In this document: positions 4,200-12,384 of the stretch, piece by piece
Layout: each line of letters opens with the position of its first letter
How positions within the stretch are numbered: position 1 is the first letter of the stretch
Origin: a virus
Lineage: Duplodnaviria; Heunggongvirae; Uroviricota; Caudoviricetes
Virus record (IMG/VR): IMGVR_UViG_2541047854_000008
Length of the DNA stretch: 13,548 nucleotides
Direction: 5' to 3' (one strand)
The notes under the pieces: model-generated
What the model was told of the DNA's origin: nothing
Seen by the model: only the letters and a program-made list of their open reading frames with translations
Database searches by the model: none
Made by a program: the position numbers and the translations under genes

Positions 4200-5282
4200 A
4201 TGAAAAAATTAACAGTGGCAATTTCTGCTGTAGCTGCATCAGTACTGATGGCGATGTCTGCTCAGGCAGCTGAAATTTATAATAAAGACAGTAACAAGCT
4301 GGATCTGTACGGGAAAGTTAATGCCAAGCACTACTTTTCCTCTAACGATGCAGATGATGGTGATACTACTTATGCCCGTCTTGGCTTCAAAGGTGAAACC
4401 CAAATCAACGATCAACTGACTGGTTTCGGTCAGTGGGAATATGAATTCAAAGGCAACCGCGCTGAATCTCAAGGTTCCTCCAAAGACAAAACCCGTCTTG
4501 CATTTGCAGGCCTGAAATTCGGTGACTACGGCTCAATCGATTACGGCCGTAACTACGGTGTAGCATACGACATCGGTGCGTGGACTGACGTTCTGCCAGA
4601 ATTCGGTGGCGATACCTGGACCCAAACAGATGTGTTCATGACTGGTCGCACCACTGGTGTTGCAACCTATCGTAACAACGACTTCTTTGGTCTGGTCGAT
4701 GGCCTGAACTTTGCTGCTCAGTATCAGGGTAAAAATGACCGCACTGACGTAACTGAAGCCAATGGTGATGGTTTCGGTTTCTCCACTACTTATGAGTATG
4801 AAGGATTCGGCGTGGGTGCAACCTATGCTAAATCAGATCGCACTGACGGTCAGGTCGCCTATGGTAAGAGCAAATTCAATGCCTCCGGCAAAAATGCGGA
4901 AGTATGGGCTGCAGGCCTGAAATATGATGCGAACAATATCTATCTGGCTACCACATATTCTGAAACTCAGAATATGACCGTTTTTGGTAATAACCATATT
5001 GCAAACAAAGCACAAAACTTTGAAGCAGTAGCACAATATCAGTTTGACTTCGGTCTGCGACCATCTGTTGCTTACCTTCAGTCAAAAGGTAAAGACCTTG
5101 GTGTTCATGGTGACCGAGACTTAGTCAAGTATGTCGATGTCGGTGCTACTTACTACTTTAATAAAAACATGTCCACTTTTGTTGATTACAAAATCAACTT
5201 AATTGACGATAGTAAGTTTACCAAAACAGCTGGTATTGATACCGACGACATCGTCGCTGTAGGTCTGGTGTATCAGTTCTAA
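4200..5282 (+). CDS. nmpC: Outer-membrane general porin of the OmpC/OmpF/PhoE family (NmpC/OmpD-like), 360 aa, intact
   Basis: Signal peptide [23 protein letters not shown] followed by AEIYNKD..., and it ends in the porin C-terminal motif ...VGLVYQF. Full length with no interruption. Oriented opposite to the flanking late genes. Confidence 0.9.
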
Positions 5283-6727: not shown

Positions 6728-6890
6728 GATTCCTCCTTGCTGCCAGTCGCAACCATTTTTTATCAACCAGGCTGGCGGTATATCCGAGCAGTGTTGGTAT
6801 TTCGGATGGTTTCAGCTCAGGCTTACGCTTACGACGATTTGGTACTCTGTAGATGTGTCCGTTCATGACACGAATAAGCGGTGTAGCCAT
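6720..6890 (-). CDS. ninE: NinE-like small protein, 56 aa; missing from the ORF track (under 60 aa)
   Basis: Hand translation gives [56 protein letters not shown], recognisably lambda NinE. The ATG at 6888-6890 overlaps the ybcN TAA by 1 nt, and the stop at 6720-6722 overlaps the ybcO start region by 8 nt. Confidence 0.8.
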   Translation of the reverse strand: MATPLIRVMNGHIYRVPNRRKRKPELKPSEIPTLLGYTASLVDKKWLRLAARRNHG

Positions 6891-7345
6891 TACGCCTCCT
6901 GCTTGTCGCGCAGCAGCTGGAACTCGCAGCTCTGCGGAATAGTCAGGTGGCAGCCAATATTCATCGCCCAGGCTTCAACCTTACACAGGAAGACATACAT
7001 CTCTCCGGTATCAAGATTGGAGGTATGACGTAATGACTGAATGGTGGTGATTTCACCGGTTACGACATCAACCAGTTCTTTGGTTTCATAACCGAGATAA
7101 GTGTGTTTGAGAGCATCTTTTACCCAAGCTGGAGTGGCGAACGTTTTACCCCTGCTGATGAGGTATTCACTGATTTCGCTGTACCACATGTGGCTGAGTG
7201 CATTCTGGGAAAGACTGCGTCTCTCGCGCCACGGTTTAAGCACCATGCGAAAGCATTTGCCGTCCTCCAGATAAGGCTGGATCTGCCGACCGATAGCGGT
7301 GAAGTTACCGCGATGCAATTTGATACCATCTTGTGGGAGGTTCAC
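6890..7345 (-). CDS. ybcN: NinB/Orf-family recombination protein (YbcN-like), 151 aa, GTG start
   Basis: The translation [62 protein letters not shown]... matches K-12 YbcN as recalled. GTG at 7343-7345 is preceded by GGAGGTGAAGC. Confidence 0.85.
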
Positions 7346-7443
7346 GCTTCACCTCCGCAGAGATCAAACGCTGGATGCAAAATATCGCAGGTGCATTTCT
7401 GCATCTGTGAATGGAGAAGAGAGGTTGGATTGTATGTGCGCAT
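7342..7443 (-). CDS. Possible small ORF (33 aa) translationally coupled to ybcN; may be the K-12 ylcH equivalent. Speculative
   Basis: ATG at 7441-7443 to TGA at 7342-7344, giving [33 protein letters not shown]. The stop overlaps the ybcN GTG (GTGA). No recognisable RBS or homolog; the call rests on position only. Confidence 0.25.
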
Positions 7444-7465
7444 AAACGTCCCCGTTTAGCGCAGA

Positions 7466-7496
7466 AGTCACCGGAGGAGTTCAAACTCCGGTGACT
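7466..7496 (-). terminator. Perfect 11-bp stem-loop (AGTCACCGGAG - 9-nt loop - CTCCGGTGACT) downstream of the HNH-motif gene; possible terminator or regulatory hairpin
   Basis: Inverted repeat read directly from the sequence. It lies between the stop of the 260-aa gene (7538) and the nin-gene block. There is no clear U-tract on the - strand and TTAATTAT follows on the + strand, so terminator function is uncertain. Confidence 0.3.
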
Positions 7497-7537
7497 TAAT
7501 TATGGCAAGTTGATTGTTGAAAATCAATTTAGTGGAT

Positions 7538-8320
7538 TTAGGCGCAATACAAAGGATCATTAGCAGCTCTAATACCGCCCTGAATCGCAAGCCCTGTATG
7601 GCAATTTGACATTGAGCATGATTGCCATCTGTGCAAGGGACCTCCATTAATCGAAACTTCCAGCAGATCTTTATCTCCTTTCATCCTGACCCCTTCATAC
7701 AACATATCAAGACGCTCAACAATCAATCCTGTTGGAGGTTCCATTTTTAGAACGAGGGCAAACTCTCCTGGCCCACGTCGTATTGTTATACGCGGGCCGG
7801 TACACTCCACATCCCAATTGTCTGATTTAGCTTTCCATTCATTTTCATCTATCAGTAAAGTCTCCTTACCAATAGAATTACAGAAAATTCCTGATAAAAG
7901 CATCGGTCCATGTGGTATGGGTGAAGGTTTCACAGAAAGAATGGGTTGTTCGTTGACTACAATCAAATTTTGACAGTTATGAAACGTCACTCCTGCAAAT
8001 TTTACTGTTATAGGCTCATTATGAAAATCAAACATTTCATTTGCAAAACCAGCCTGTAAGCACTTGGGATTTCTGTCAGCTATTTCCACTGTCTGTGCTG
8101 AAAGTCTACCACGAGCTCTTTTTTGATTGCATTGGGAGCAAAGAAGTGTCATTCCATTCGGATCATGTATTTTGGCATCAACGAAGTCAGGTTTAAAATG
8201 CTCATAATCATAAAATCCAAATCCACAAATTACACAGCCAAAGCCGCACCTTTGCCTTATCTGACGTTTTATTGTCTCAGGTATTCTTCTTGAGAGCCCG
8301 TGTTTATTAATATTGTCCAT
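7538..8320 (-). CDS. Hypothetical 260-aa protein with an N-terminal zinc-finger HNH (beta-beta-alpha-Me) nuclease motif and an uncharacterised ~190-aa C-terminal domain
   Basis: ATG at 8318-8320 with an in-frame stop 5 codons upstream and only a weak SD. Residues 25-65 read RCGFGCVICGFGFYDYEHFKPDFVDAKIHDPNGMTLLCSQCNQ, i.e. C-x3-C-x2-C ... EH ... N ... C-x2-C-N, the spacing typical of HNH nucleases. The C-terminal region is not recognised. The gene is AT-rich relative to the lambda-like core. Confidence 0.6.
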   Translation of the reverse strand: MDNINKHGLSRRIPETIKRQIRQRCGFGCVICGFGFYDYEHFKPDFVDAKIHDPNGMTLLCSQCNQKRARGRLSAQTVEIADRNPKCLQAGFANEMFDFHNEPITVKFAGVTFHNCQNLIVVNEQPILSVKPSPIPHGPMLLSGIFCNSIGKETLLIDENEWKAKSDNWDVECTGPRITIRRGPGEFALVLKMEPPTGLIVERLDMLYEGVRMKGDKDLLEVSINGGPLHRWQSCSMSNCHTGLAIQGGIRAANDPLYCA

Positions 8321-8450
8321 ATGGTTAGTACGCTATAAGTTTGTTTCTATAATTTTACCACAATAGATAAGTTTGTATCAGAAATCGCTATATGGAGTGA
8401 GCGGAATATTTATATTATTCATGCAATTGCTCTCCCGTACGCAGCCCGCA

Positions 8451-8476
8451 CTTCCGTCATCGCAGAATGACGGAAG
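8451..8476 (-). promoter_or_regulatory. Perfect 10-bp inverted repeat (CTTCCGTCAT-cgcaga-ATGACGGAAG) in the intergenic region between the 107-aa and 260-aa genes; candidate operator or attenuator hairpin
   Basis: Read directly from the sequence. It lies 19 nt past the stop of the 107-aa ORF and upstream of an AT-rich stretch that contains an extended -10-like TGGTAAAAT (- strand, about 8350-8360). No U-tract follows on either strand. Confidence 0.3.
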
Positions 8477-8494
8477 CCTTACTAACTAGCGCCT

Positions 8495-8818
8495 TTATTG
8501 AAACAGATTCTGAGGTAAATGCGGCAATACTTGACTCCACTTATCATCCTGCCACGGCTGAAGTTTTACATGTGCCGTTTCTCGGGCGAGGATTGCTCGC
8601 GCTCTGTTGAGTCTCTGGGGATATTCTTGCTCGATGGAAGTGAAGTGACCAGCCTCACCATGCTCCGCATCCTGAAGAAGATGAGTAACGTTCTGGTAGG
8701 CAATTAACATCACATTCCCTGCTCGCCATAACCAGGCGAGTGTGCAAAGTTCGTTATCAGTGAATTGTTTTGTGATTGGGAATTGTTGAACTGCTAGAAC
8801 GGGAACGCCAGCATCCAT
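8495..8818 (-). CDS. Hypothetical protein, 107 aa, no recognised family; upstream partner of the HNH-motif gene
   Basis: ATG at 8816-8818 with an in-frame TAG 3 codons upstream and AGGGA 8 nt upstream. Translation MDAGVPVLAVQQFPITKQFTDNELCTLAWLWRAGNVMLIAYQNVTHLLQDAEHGEAGHFTSIEQEYPQRLNRARAILARETAHVKLQPWQDDKWSQVLPHLPQNLFQ. Coding status rests on ORF length and position only. Confidence 0.45.
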   Translation of the reverse strand: MDAGVPVLAVQQFPITKQFTDNELCTLAWLWRAGNVMLIAYQNVTHLLQDAEHGEAGHFTSIEQEYPQRLNRARAILARETAHVKLQPWQDDKWSQVLPHLPQNLFQ

Positions 8819-8929
8819 TGGCAGTCCCTATAGTAAAACCATAGCTCAGGACGCTTCGTTCAGGATAGATACTTTTATTGTACTTACCTAACTTTCTTAC
8901 TATAGCACGGTTGGAAAAGTGATTATTAC

Positions 8930-10456
8930 TCAAAAATAAACCTCACCATCAACCATATATTTGAGAGTACTTATCGCCTGCTGGGCGGATATTGTTTTCA
9001 TTAAAGGATAGTGTTTAAAAACAATGCCATTCATAAAATAGATATCACAGGTTTTATTATCTGTATTGATTATGATTTTTTCGAATGTTTTATAGGCAAG
9101 TGTACGACATAGCTCTCGCCCATTTTTACTGGTTAAGTCAATAGCATGAAAATCACCAAGTGAACTCACCGCTTTACTCTTCAAAGTTTTTAATGATACC
9201 GAAGCCCTTCGTAATTCTTTATCTAATACTCTGATTTTTTCTGCTATAGCGGTAACTTCAGGCGCAACAGATAATGCAGCAATTAAATTATTAATTTTCA
9301 TCTGGAGCTCAATAATTTTCAACTCTAAAGTTTCATTAGCATCTTTCTTGTTTTCAACTGGTTGGATTTTACTACAATTAAAAAGCAACTCATTAATGAT
9401 ATTATAATCAACCAAATCTCTCTTTATTGATGGCCTGTCACATCGATGCAGTCTTCTCATCGGACAAACATAATAGCCATGCAAACTTCCAGATACCGCA
9501 TGAACAATCATGGTATTACCACAAGCCTCGCACTTCATAACTGTTCGAAGTAGATTTATCAACATAGGATTTTTGCTACTATTGCTAATACCAAAAGGTG
9601 CCAACCGAATTTCCTGCACAGCGTAAAACAAATCATCTGATATGACTCTGGGATAATAGCCAGCGATTTCACTTATTCCTTTACCTCTTGCACGATATGA
9701 AGGTACGCATATACCTATCAGAGCTTTATTCGCTAATAATTTTTCAATTACAGAAGGCCCCCATGCACTTTCTTTGCCTGAGAAATTTTTTACAGCATGA
9801 TCATTTAAATACTTGGCTATTGCATTCAATGATCGCCTTTCCATCCTGAGTTTAAAAATTAGCTCAATCGTTTTCACCCTGTCGGGGTCTGGAATAAAAG
9901 CTGTTCTTTTGTCATCCAATGAGAGCCATCTCGGACAAGACGCCGTCATAATCGTGCCTGACTCCAGTGCATCCTGCCGTTTTTTCTTCCATGATAATTT
10001 AACCCGACTTGACTTTATCTCGCTTTCTTCATTTGCCCTTTGTGCTATAAGTATGGCTTTTATTAATGAATATGGATCATTCAAAGAGTCAATATTATAG
10101 ACTGTATTATCGCAAAGAGTTATAACATCAATACCGTGATTCAAAATCAATTTCAGACGCTCAATCGCTTCACCGACTTTTTCTCTTGAAAGTCTGTCCA
10201 AACTTTCAACTAACAATGTAGTTCCTGGCAATATATAACCATGCTCTATAGCATCTAAAAATTCCGAAAAAGCTCCTGATTGTGCATGCTTTCCTTTGAA
10301 TGCACTTAATCCTAAATCTTCATATGTTATGGTATCAAGATAATAATCACTATTTACCTTTAACCATTCAGCAATAAGTCTTCTCTGTCGGTTCAATGAG
10401 TCGCCAGACATCTGACCTGGTGATGAAAATCGCATATATGCTATGGCTTTTTTCAT
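8930..10456 (-). CDS. ybcK: Large serine recombinase (resolvase/invertase-type N-terminal catalytic domain plus recombinase and zinc-ribbon domains), 508 aa
   Basis: ATG at 10454-10456. The N-terminus MKKAIAYMRFSSPGQMSGDSLNRQRRLIAEW... carries the serine-recombinase catalytic motif (YxRxSS). The C-terminal part has a Cys cluster (CEACGN...CPMRRLHRC) and a coiled-coil-like segment. Matches K-12 YbcK in length and sequence as recalled. AT-rich. Confidence 0.9.
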   Translation of the reverse strand: MKKAIAYMRFSSPGQMSGDSLNRQRRLIAEWLKVNSDYYLDTITYEDLGLSAFKGKHAQSGAFSEFLDAIEHGYILPGTTLLVESLDRLSREKVGEAIERLKLILNHGIDVITLCDNTVYNIDSLNDPYSLIKAILIAQRANEESEIKSSRVKLSWKKKRQDALESGTIMTASCPRWLSLDDKRTAFIPDPDRVKTIELIFKLRMERRSLNAIAKYLNDHAVKNFSGKESAWGPSVIEKLLANKALIGICVPSYRARGKGISEIAGYYPRVISDDLFYAVQEIRLAPFGISNSSKNPMLINLLRTVMKCEACGNTMIVHAVSGSLHGYYVCPMRRLHRCDRPSIKRDLVDYNIINELLFNCSKIQPVENKKDANETLELKIIELQMKINNLIAALSVAPEVTAIAEKIRVLDKELRRASVSLKTLKSKAVSSLGDFHAIDLTSKNGRELCRTLAYKTFEKIIINTDNKTCDIYFMNGIVFKHYPLMKTISAQQAISTLKYMVDGEVYF

Positions 10457-11111: not shown

Positions 11112-11414
11112 TCATTGTGTACCCATTGATGTTCTTTTATATACCCTCAATACGCGTTTCATCGCGGCACTCTGGCGACACTCCTTAAAAATCAGATTCG
11201 TGCTCACCTTTCCTTCCCGTTCTTCTCTGGTAGCGAACCGGTAATACACCGTTCGCCAGACCTTACCATCAACGACCAGGATTCCTGCCCGCGCCATTTT
11301 AGCCGCAGCCTGATTTATGCTGGTTACGGTTGCGCCTGTTACCGCGGCAACGTCCTGTGCACAGAAGCTCTTATGCGTCCCCAGGTAATGAATAATTGCC
11401 TCTTTGCCCGTCAT
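11112..11414 (-). CDS. renD: Ren protein homolog (lambda Ren, protects against Rex exclusion), 100 aa
   Basis: The translation MTGKEAIIHYLGTHKSFCAQDVAAVTGATVTSINQAAAKMARAGILVVDGKVWRTVYYRFATREEREGKVSTNLIFKECRQSAAMKRVL... is recognisably lambda Ren. The ATG overlaps the P stop (ATGA), as in lambda. Confidence 0.85.
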   Translation of the reverse strand: MTGKEAIIHYLGTHKSFCAQDVAAVTGATVTSINQAAAKMARAGILVVDGKVWRTVYYRFATREEREGKVSTNLIFKECRQSAAMKRVLRVYKRTSMGTQ

Positions 11415-12112
11415 ACACTTGCTCCTTTCAGTCCGAACTTAGCTTTAATTTCTGCGATCTTCGCCAGAGCCTGTGCACGATTTAGAGGTCTACCGCCCAT
11501 AACAGGAAGTTGTTTTACTGGTTCAGGTATCGTCTCACCACGGTTAATTCGCGCTGTCATACAGGTCAGTTCATCGGCAGCCTTGCGCCGTAATTCCGCG
11601 TCAGTCAGCGCATTGGCCCGCATGTTCTGGTACAAGTTGGTAACCAACCAGTAATGCGCGTTCGATTTCCACGGATAAGACTCTGCATCCGGATACAGGC
11701 CACGCTTCCGGCAATACTCGTAAACCATATCAACCAGCTCGCTGACGTTTGGCAGCCCGGCGTTAACAGATGCTTCTTCCCGGCACCAGGCGACAAACTG
11801 CCCGGGTGATGGCAGGAATGGTCGATTCTGCCGACGGGCTACGCGCATTCCAGCGTTAACCTGTTCCATTGTGGTGATCCCGTTTTCCCGGAAAGCCAGA
11901 ACCCACTGGCGGCGGATTTCGTTCAGTTCATTCTGGTCACGGTTAGCCAGGCTCGCCGGGAAAGTTGCCAGTAACTGGCTGAACACACCGTTGATGATCT
12001 GCGCTACCTGCTGTACCTGTGGCTTTTCGTCGTACTGTTCCGGCATGTTGTTGGCGATCCGGCGCATCTGCTCACAGTCAAAGTTAACCATCTGTGCGGC
12101 GATGTTTTTCAT
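11411..12112 (-). CDS. P: Replication protein P (DnaB helicase loader) homolog, 233 aa, apparently full length
   Basis: The translation MKNIAAQMVNFDCEQMRRIANNMPEQYDEKPQVQQVAQIINGVFSQLLATFPASLANRDQNELNEIRRQWVLAFRENGITTMEQVNAGMRVARRQNRPFLPSPGQFVAWCREEASV... is near-identical to lambda P as recalled. The start ATG overlaps the stop of the upstream O-frame remnant (ATGA), as in lambda. Confidence 0.9.
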   Translation of the reverse strand: MKNIAAQMVNFDCEQMRRIANNMPEQYDEKPQVQQVAQIINGVFSQLLATFPASLANRDQNELNEIRRQWVLAFRENGITTMEQVNAGMRVARRQNRPFLPSPGQFVAWCREEASVNAGLPNVSELVDMVYEYCRKRGLYPDAESYPWKSNAHYWLVTNLYQNMRANALTDAELRRKAADELTCMTARINRGETIPEPVKQLPVMGGRPLNRAQALAKIAEIKAKFGLKGASV

Positions 12113-12288
12113 AGCTCCACCCCGTAAATCCAGTCAGTGTTCGTCAGGTCGAGTTTTGGTTTGCCGGCTATCACGCCAGCCTGTTGCTTGTTTCGGTTGA
12201 TTTCGAGCTGGGTCCACTTGTCGCGGAGTTTGGCCGGACTTAGCACGTTACAGGCAACACGTAAAGATCCAACCAAGCCAAAATCTCC
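12109..12288 (-). pseudogene. O: 3'-terminal remnant of replication initiator gene O (only the last several tens of codons); no start codon, so the ori-containing part of O is absent
   Basis: The - strand frame ending in TGA at 12109-12111 encodes ...AGVIAGKPKLDLTNTDWIYGVEL, which matches my recollection of the lambda O C-terminus, and has the lambda-like O/P ATGA overlap. The frame is closed by an in-frame stop at 12289-12291 and there is no N-terminal part. The exact junction with int-upstream sequence is not determined. Confidence 0.45.
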
Positions 12289-12384
12289 TTACCTCACAAC
12301 ACGGCAAGCCTGCATTGCGGCGCTTCAGTCTCCGCTGCATACTGTCCAGGTGAGCGCGGGTGATGGCATAACAGAGGAAAGAAA

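Follow-up and report, generated by a model that had tools for sequence, protein, structure and literature searches.

The 260-amino-acid (aa) protein encoded at 7538..8320 on the minus strand of IMG/VR virus record IMGVR_UViG_2541047854_000008 is most likely a stand-alone prophage exclusion nuclease carried on an autonomous single-gene accessory cassette (a "moron"), a reading to which we give about an even chance. We refer to the protein as HNH-beta, after its HNH domain and the all-beta domain that follows. The whole stretch analyzed, 13,548 nucleotides (nt) and here called the window, is a DLP12-type cryptic lambdoid prophage from the argU/fimZ site of a non-K-12 Escherichia coli strain, lying in the orientation opposite to that of K-12. 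An earlier note, made from the sequence alone, had described an AT-rich insert of two genes at 7346-8929 and suggested that it was an accessory or anti-phage module. We found the 260-aa gene and its homologs in locations of the kind used by defense genes: in the slot that elsewhere holds BstA, in the gpA-gpQ hotspot of P2-like prophages, and in an integron cassette, with a slot for PD-Lambda-1 or a SIR2 protein adjoining the one in E. coli.

Cargo slot between ybcK and ybcN

We mapped the mosaic junctions by blastn of the window against eight variants (K-12, phages Turner and PhiR26_1, and five E. coli strains). Identity to K-12 was 94 to 97% up to position 7527 and resumed at 8921. The segment that actually differs from K-12 is thus 7528..8920 (1,393 base pairs [bp]) rather than 7346-8929, and its K-12 counterpart is ybcL plus ybcM (1,846 bp). 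The earlier note had given ybcL, ybcM, and ylcH as the K-12 cargo at this position; the first two are indeed replaced, but ylcH is retained in the conserved DNA.

On one side, homology ended exactly at 7527/7528 in all eight compared variants, 10 nt past the stop codon of the 260-aa open reading frame (ORF), and 6800..7527 was conserved in every one of them. On the other side, it restarted at 8444 in O104:H4, STK77-E, and phage PhiR26_1 and at 8502-8515 in LWY24, KY174, and phage Turner. These positions make the 260-aa gene the sole gene of a 916-bp cassette, 7528..8443 on the minus strand, with a guanine-plus-cytosine (GC) content of 39.6%. The rest of the segment, 8444..8920 (minus strand), holds a 107-aa ORF and a 10-bp inverted repeat and extends up to ybcK. 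It is common, at 94 to 99% identity, to phage Turner, LWY24, KY174, and O104:H4, all of which carry other cargo and no HNH-beta, and we regard it as a separate mosaic block, an antirepressor-remnant module that travels with ybcK.

The end point shared by all variants suggests a fixed recombination joint for cassette exchange. The equivalent of 7527/7528 in LWY24 (locus L021) is 2350/2351, and the same joint was seen in loci L022, L023, L024, L004, and L005. Across variants, it falls 10 to 15 nt past the stop codon of whichever cargo gene fills the slot.

In LWY24, the slot with this same junction holds a 309-aa BstA (L021, 2365-3294; PADLOC E value, 3.6e-121). The role of BstA in abortive infection, as a prophage protein, has been validated by experiment (Owen et al. 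2021, PMC8585504). Because BstA has been described downstream of prophage repressor genes, the DLP12-type ybcK/ybcN locus of LWY24 counts as a position different from the described one. Further alleles of the slot are a 169-aa protein, a 118-aa protein, small ORFs (phage Turner), and ybcL plus ybcM (K-12). The 169-aa allele is WP_000990013.1 (L022, 2757-3266; L024, 2757-3266; L005, 3307-3816) and the 118-aa allele is WP_000379698.1 (L023, 2663-3019); neither matches Pfam or PADLOC. The comparison with K-12 and other lambdoid prophages, in which BstA, the 169-aa and 118-aa proteins, and ybcL plus ybcM all meet one junction, bears out the earlier suggestion of a swappable cargo locus. It shows that recombination at fixed junctions moves HNH-beta between lambdoid prophages, where BstA and other cargo are its alleles.

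The adjacent slot, from ren to the antirepressor, holds emrE-ylcJ-ybcK, PD-Lambda-1 (E value, 2e-198), or a 643-aa SIR2 protein. The loci in which SIR2 or PD-Lambda-1 (DUF4041 plus T5orf172) replaces emrE-ylcJ-ybcK are L020 (4040-5971), L024 (4922-6424), and L005 (5473-6975).

The 260-aa protein and its homologs

The AlphaFold2 model of the 260-aa protein has two domains (mean predicted local distance difference test score, 89.5; predicted template modeling score, 0.81). Codons 1-90 (8051..8320, minus strand) specify, by motif and predicted structure, a basic HNH/His-Me finger domain with an isoelectric point (pI) of 9.2. Its key residues are the zinc ligands C29-x2-C32 and C61-x2-C64, the E40-H41 pair, and N65. 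The domain has the beta-beta-alpha-metal fold, the acidic-His pair with a His/Asn on the helix, and the two CxxC pairs of the HNH/His-Me superfamily, and its motif positions align with those of IscB and ZRANB3. C29, C32, H41, and C61 are invariant in both of our alignments and C64 is at least 90% conserved; for E40 and N65, invariance holds only within the 46 closer relatives. Distant relatives have His at the N65 position, which gives a canonical CxxCH, and D, E, or H before the catalytic His; the 260-aa subfamily is therefore an H-N-N variant of the ordinary HNH motif. The protein itself scored 14.4 bits against Pfam PF01844, below the gathering threshold of 21.4, but P0217, a distant relative of the same architecture, scored 25.0 bits and passed it. 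The nuclease motif reported earlier in the downstream gene is thus a genuine HNH domain. At the level of fold and conserved residues this identifies the N-terminal domain as the predicted DNA-cutting effector.

Codons 91-246 (7583..8050, minus strand) specify an all-beta domain in the predicted structure. It has about 17 strands, is acidic (pI 5.5), and carries conserved ExFDF and NWD motifs. Comparison with PDB chains gave no solved structural relative for this domain, which we consider a putative sensor or substrate-recognition domain.

The earlier note had been unable to assign either ORF to a family. This still holds for the 260-aa protein, which is a "hypothetical protein" in RefSeq (WP_001301145.1) and belongs to phrog_6544 (E value, 3.4e-141), a family with no assigned function; the 107-aa ORF matches a known domain, as described below. 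NCBIfam had no match for either ORF. A full-length profile search of PDB sequences returned only a spurious gp160 match, and a search of viral folds in BFVD with the full-length model returned weak matches to the HNH domain only (E values of 0.1 or higher), none of them full length. A literature search found nothing on the accession or on the combination of DLP12, HNH, and anti-phage activity. No name for the family was found; the protein is a predicted stand-alone nuclease, carried in a prophage hotspot, whose second domain is unrecognized.

A search of 5.8 billion proteins gave 307 matches. The 120 listed were mostly full length at 50 to 79% identity, and their hosts were Enterobacter, Klebsiella, Citrobacter, Burkholderia, Comamonas, Alcaligenes, Pseudomonas, and Vibrio. 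In Gamma- and Betaproteobacteria, conservation of HNH-beta extends from end to end of the protein, and more distant homologs were found in one alphaproteobacterium, one cyanobacterium, and one metagenome-assembled genome of Bacteroidota. A profile of the beta domain found 1,560 representatives at 50% clustering, 790 of them at an E value of 1e-10 or lower, and in most representatives the domain begins near residue 90. Distant members P0166, P0205, P0170, and P0239 continue past the beta domain with TPR repeats, a CxxCxxCC domain, or unannotated tails of up to 672 aa, so that the C-terminal region is variable. Against five homologs, the number of nonsynonymous substitutions per site (dN) was 0.14 to 0.34; synonymous sites were saturated, and we therefore do not express the result as a dN/dS ratio. 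Low dN together with saturated synonymous sites indicates purifying selection on HNH-beta.

Among 5,426 complete E. coli genomes, 80 have the 260-aa gene at full length, all at 99% identity or higher, so that the gene is kept intact within a decayed prophage. The inspected loci share the same local arrangement, yet the prophages differ elsewhere. The only other copy, in E. coli ST12468 (L027, 4001-6038), is split by IS3 at window position ~7925-7929, with IS1 adjoining. Homologs were also found on 7 of 72,556 plasmids and on 100 viral contigs of IMG/VR.

In Enterobacter, Klebsiella, and a second E. coli type (lambdoid or P22-like prophages), the homolog closely follows the replication genes and precedes the nin/Q genes. 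P2-like prophages carry a 42%-identical homolog between replication gene A (gpA) and the portal gene; the gpA-gpQ interval is a defense hotspot, which in P2 holds old and tin (Rousset et al., PMC9122126). The homolog in a P2-like element of Pseudomonas luteola adjoins the portal gene, after RelE/ParE and XRE genes, and that in a Pseudomonas prophage lies on the strand opposite to its neighbors. In Vibrio cholerae (GCA_046530255.1; L115, 1-2161), the homolog is a one-gene superintegron cassette between V. cholerae repeats (VCR/attC) of about 125 bp. These repeats have CATAAC...GTTATG cores, and the neighboring cassettes encode an acetyltransferase and a glyoxalase. Comamonas and Burkholderia copies lie in plain chromosome, with little or no phage context. 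A small XRE/HTH_3 regulator gene lies directly upstream of the homolog in three nonlambdoid loci, those of Comamonas, P. luteola, and Calothrix (L016, 6394-6834; L108, 6550-6834; L109, 6097-6345). No neighbor family occurred in more than 6 of the 36 dereplicated viral loci. HNH-beta works alone: it has no conserved partner gene, and in V. cholerae it is a lone integron cassette.

Of the known systems, BstA is like HNH-beta in being single-gene prophage cargo of two domains and about 260 to 310 aa, found in the identical slot in LWY24 and spread across Proteobacteria, mostly in prophages. However, the two have no sequence relationship: the PADLOC BstA model does not match the 260-aa protein, and BstA has a KilA-N-like DNA-binding N terminus, no nuclease motif, and a self-immunity element, aba, with no known counterpart here. 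We also considered EcoKMcrA and the HNH type IV enzymes ScoMcrA, TagI, and VcaM4I to be close. Cap5, the HNH-SAVED effector of cyclic oligonucleotide-based antiphage signaling systems (CBASS), differs in that HNH-beta has neither a SAVED domain nor a cyclase operon, and the beta domain is unrelated. PtuB, the HNH partner of the ATPase PtuA in Septu, which we considered together with the retron-associated TIGR02646 proteins, differs in that the score of HNH-beta against its model is insignificant and no PtuA-like ATPase or retron lies nearby.

Sirona and Nemetona are single-gene integron cassettes of V. cholerae N16961 with demonstrated anti-phage activity; a preprint describes both as distantly related to His-Me finger nucleases and reports Sirona in 34 genera (10.1101/2024.07.02.601686). 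They resemble HNH-beta in that a homolog of the latter is also a V. cholerae superintegron cassette. They are likened there to a type II restriction domain and NinG (PF05766), whereas the 260-aa protein has no PF05766 match. No abundant relative of the N16961 type came up when we searched with the Vibrio homolog. Sirona and Nemetona on the one hand and HNH-beta on the other are probably different families. The DefensePredictor study tested an E. coli protein, "HNH1" (301 aa, WP_252151320.1); the supplements searched list neither WP_001301145 nor WP_001348590.

The proposed exclusion nuclease and competing explanations

As an exclusion nuclease, HNH-beta would protect the lysogen by attacking superinfecting phage DNA, with the basic N-terminal HNH domain cutting that DNA. 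It may be expressed in the lysogen from its own AT-rich upstream region. The acidic beta domain might select the substrate, such as modified or foreign DNA, in the manner of type IV enzymes like McrA; alternatively, it might keep the nuclease inactive until a phage cue is sensed, like the sensor domain of Cap5. We propose these roles because the domain is obligately fused to HNH and because of the analogy with McrA-type and Cap5-type proteins. A broader claim is possible and is put forward more tentatively: that HNH-beta is a new, widespread one-protein anti-phage nuclease whose all-beta domain is an undescribed sensor or foreign-DNA-recognition fold, and which occurs as an allele of BstA and also in P2 hotspots and chromosomal integrons.

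Several observations weigh against a defense function. No defense model of PADLOC-DB 2.0 matched the protein, the only hit being PtuB at an E value of 0.04 and 11.8 bits, and our literature search found no experiment on any member of the family. PADLOC scans of 138 and 121 neighbor proteins (from viral contigs and other homolog loci, respectively) gave no enrichment of defense genes; beyond methyltransferases, there was a single match, to HerA, among the 25 defense families listed. The role of the beta domain is pure conjecture by analogy. DNA methyltransferases lie within four genes of the homolog in about 13 of the 36 dereplicated viral loci, and a modification-dependent nuclease would not be expected in such surroundings. 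Promoter-like sites are no commoner than chance (6 found, against 4.3 ± 2.1 in shuffles). Finally, the 260-aa gene is dispensable and easily lost in E. coli: only 1.5% of complete genomes have it, and 26 genomes retain just its last 50 nt, fused to an antirepressor pseudogene. This remnant (L020, 3501-3762, and 25 other genomes) is joined to the middle of the pseudogene and is a deletion derivative from which the gene was lost.

The main rival explanation, which we consider unlikely, is a selfish or phage life cycle HNH nuclease, either a free-standing homing endonuclease that spreads the cassette it lies in or a structure-specific nuclease that works in phage recombination or replication with the nin-region genes (NinB, NinG, RusA). 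Phage HNH genes are often homing endonucleases, the gene adjoins recombination genes in lambdoid prophages, and the sharp 7527/7528 junction recurs in every variant. In addition, the pattern of two CxxC pairs, D/E-H, and Asn resembles that of T4 endonuclease VII, and one BFVD match is named recombination endonuclease VII. Against this, just one of 50,697 deposited phage genomes (a Klebsiella prophage) has a homolog, and the family also occupies P2 hotspots, an integron cassette, plasmids, and plain chromosome and, in Pseudomonas, the strand opposite to the phage operon. The insertion in E. coli is neither in nor beside a conserved essential gene. Where HNH-beta is missing, the slot holds other cargo genes rather than an empty target site, and the near-empty allele is the deletion derivative that kept 50 nt; among the compared alleles there was no presence/absence polymorphism at an intact target site. 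The C-terminal domain, moreover, is acidic and lacks the DNA-binding modules typical of homing enzymes. A restriction endonuclease that relies on DNA methylation for self-protection, whether from a loosely paired phage methyltransferase or, in E. coli, from host Dam or Dcm, which would spare the chromosome, is kept alive as an explanation by the methyltransferases near the homologs, although we think it improbable. These are the commonest neighbors in the 36 loci (C5 in 8, Dam-class in 3, and N6/N4 in 2), and an MT-A70 methylase lies two genes upstream of the homolog in Klebsiella prophages. The XRE-type regulators directly upstream in three loci recall the controller proteins of some restriction systems, and the best structural matches include restriction HNH enzymes. 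Yet there is no methyltransferase, cognate and adjacent or otherwise, in the 13.5-kb window; in 23 of the 36 loci, none lies within four genes of the homolog; and the Vibrio copy stands alone in its cassette. The methylases are of four unrelated classes and vary in distance and strand, and five of the eight C5 loci are one Pseudomonas prophage lineage. Phage orphan methylases are in any case common in the same accessory regions. The methyltransferase loci include L078, L080, L081, L089, L090, L055, L085, and L092; in some, the two genes are convergent and only 57 to 300 bp apart.

There is little to recommend the idea that HNH-beta is inert cargo, decaying along with its cryptic prophage and at present without a function in E. 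coli. The prophage is defective: its O gene is frameshifted, ISAs1 lies at its edge, and the stretch read contains no structural genes. One copy of the gene is split by IS3, 26 genomes have lost it, and the neighboring 107-aa ORF is itself a remnant. Against decay, 80 of the 81 copies in E. coli have kept the full length, with identity of 99% or more, and the family is conserved over its whole length, with invariant catalytic residues and dN far below the saturated synonymous divergence. It is very improbable that the 107-aa ORF and the 260-aa ORF work jointly as a two-gene accessory system, as the earlier note had proposed. They are on the same strand, 174 bp apart, and adjacent at every locus inspected among the 80 E. 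coli genomes that have the 260-aa gene. However, they lie in separate mosaic blocks and differ in occurrence: of the 5,426 complete E. coli genomes, 343 contain at least 80% of the remnant block but only 80 the 260-aa gene, and most of the 343 lack that gene (about 260 genomes have the 107-aa ORF alone). The apparently viable phage Turner has the block as well. The 260-aa homologs of other genera never adjoin the 107-aa ORF, which represents a truncated antirepressor and, in some strains, has become a pseudogene. From the separate blocks and unequal occurrence, we conclude that the two ORFs are not a two-gene module.

If HNH-beta is indeed a defense nuclease, the 916-bp cassette would be a compact one-protein immune nuclease with an unfamiliar recognition domain, representing some 1,500 protein clusters across Proteobacteria and beyond. 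The positional evidence for HNH-beta is strong, and such a role would not surprise a specialist. If the defense reading fails, it is still shown that the locus is not a two-gene system and that half of it is a gene remnant. In either case, a lambdoid cargo slot has been mapped with base-pair-exact junctions, with BstA, HNH-beta, and several uncharacterized genes as alleles, next to a slot that holds PD-Lambda-1, SIR2, or emrE-ybcK. The 169-aa and 118-aa alleles are further cargo candidates.

The antirepressor remnant and flanking DNA

The 107-aa ORF (8495..8818, minus strand) matches Pfam P22_AR_C (E value, 1.5e-13) and the Ant (antirepressor) families of PHROG. It shares 81% identity with residues 105-202 of the 202-aa "Rha" protein of phage PhiR26_1, which carries both Bro-N and P22AR_C domains. 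The P22AR C-terminal domain is thus common to P22 Ant, Rha-type antirepressors, and the 107-aa ORF, but Pfam found no Bro-N in the latter, whose first ~9 residues are novel. DNA homology to the full-length antirepressor gene ends at 8805, 13 nt into the ORF; the first codons therefore derive from the unrelated DNA where the ORF meets the ybcK block. On these comparisons of sequence, the ORF is the leftover 3' half of a Bro-N/Rha-type antirepressor gene, cut where the emrE-ybcK block joins. We rejected it as an independent functional gene; it is truncated and has decayed in some strains, with an internal stop codon in O104:H4 and a frameshift in another strain. Phage Turner (PP925837; L004, 4416-6531), a deposited, apparently viable, lambda-like phage, carries the emrE multidrug efflux gene and ybcK together with the remnant, which shows that the block also occurs outside cryptic DLP12.

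Both ORFs have the same orientation, as reported earlier, on the minus strand, and the perfect 10-bp inverted repeat noted between them is present at 8451..8476 (arms 8451-8460 and 8467-8476, with a 6-nt loop; predicted RNA folding energy, -22.8 kcal/mol). It lies just 3' of the antirepressor remnant, within 8444..8494, and is also found after the stop codon of the full-length rha gene. Because phages with the full-length gene share it, the repeat belongs to the 3' flank of the antirepressor gene and does not link the two ORFs. A perfect 12-bp inverted repeat with a 9-nt loop (7465..7497; -20 kcal/mol) lies between the cargo slot and ylcH, in DNA shared with K-12. A perfect inverted 10-mer occurred in 8% of 2,000 shuffles of the segment, and the observed count, including the 12-bp repeat, occurred in 0.2%. 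Neither repeat has a T-run after it on either strand, and we rejected both as intrinsic terminators.

The earlier description of the insert as AT-rich was right in part. The noncoding DNA upstream of the 260-aa gene in its cassette (8321..8443, minus strand) has a GC content of 33%, and that upstream of the 107-aa ORF (8819..8929) has one of 38%. However, only the 260-aa gene and its upstream DNA are clearly AT-rich; the GC content of the 107-aa ORF is 47.5%, and that of the whole window is 44.6%. In the DNA upstream of the 260-aa gene, a consensus scan found a promoter-like site at 8381..8352 on the minus strand, CTGATA-18-TAAAAT with an extended -10 TG, a weak hint that HNH-beta may be expressed from its own promoter.

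The full window is 100% identical to strain B-JRPT-4119, apart from ~1 kb that the strain has and the window lacks. The extra ~1 kb apparently belongs to the replication-gene region, where the O gene is frameshifted. On the minus strand, the order of genes is P, ren, emrE, ylcJ, ybcK, the 107-aa ORF, and the 260-aa ORF, followed by a ylcH-like ORF, ybcN, ninE, ybcO, rusA, ylcG, and quuD. The left flank of the segment is ybcK (8930..10456, minus strand), annotated as a large serine recombinase and matching Pfam Resolvase, Recombinase, and Zn_ribbon_recom. The right flank is the NinB-like ybcN (6890..7345, minus strand; Pfam NinB E value, 1.5e-4). The 33-codon ylcH-like ORF (7342..7443, minus strand; RefSeq annotation) is kept as in K-12 and lies outside the insert.

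A 98-bp sequence at 7366-7463, which overlaps the ylcH-like ORF, recurs with 91% identity in phage PhiR26_1 (L005, 5067-5164) and strain STK77-E (L024, 4516-4613), in both cases upstream of the full-length antirepressor gene. There, the direct repeat brackets the antirepressor and 169-aa genes, and it may serve as a linker that favors the exchange of modules. Elsewhere in the window, the ORF for replication protein P is full length (11411-12112, 233 aa), and 567 bp at 11723-12289 are not in K-12 DLP12. The prophage porin gene (nmpC/ompC-like, 360 aa; 4200-5282) is intact, whereas the K-12 copy is interrupted by IS5.

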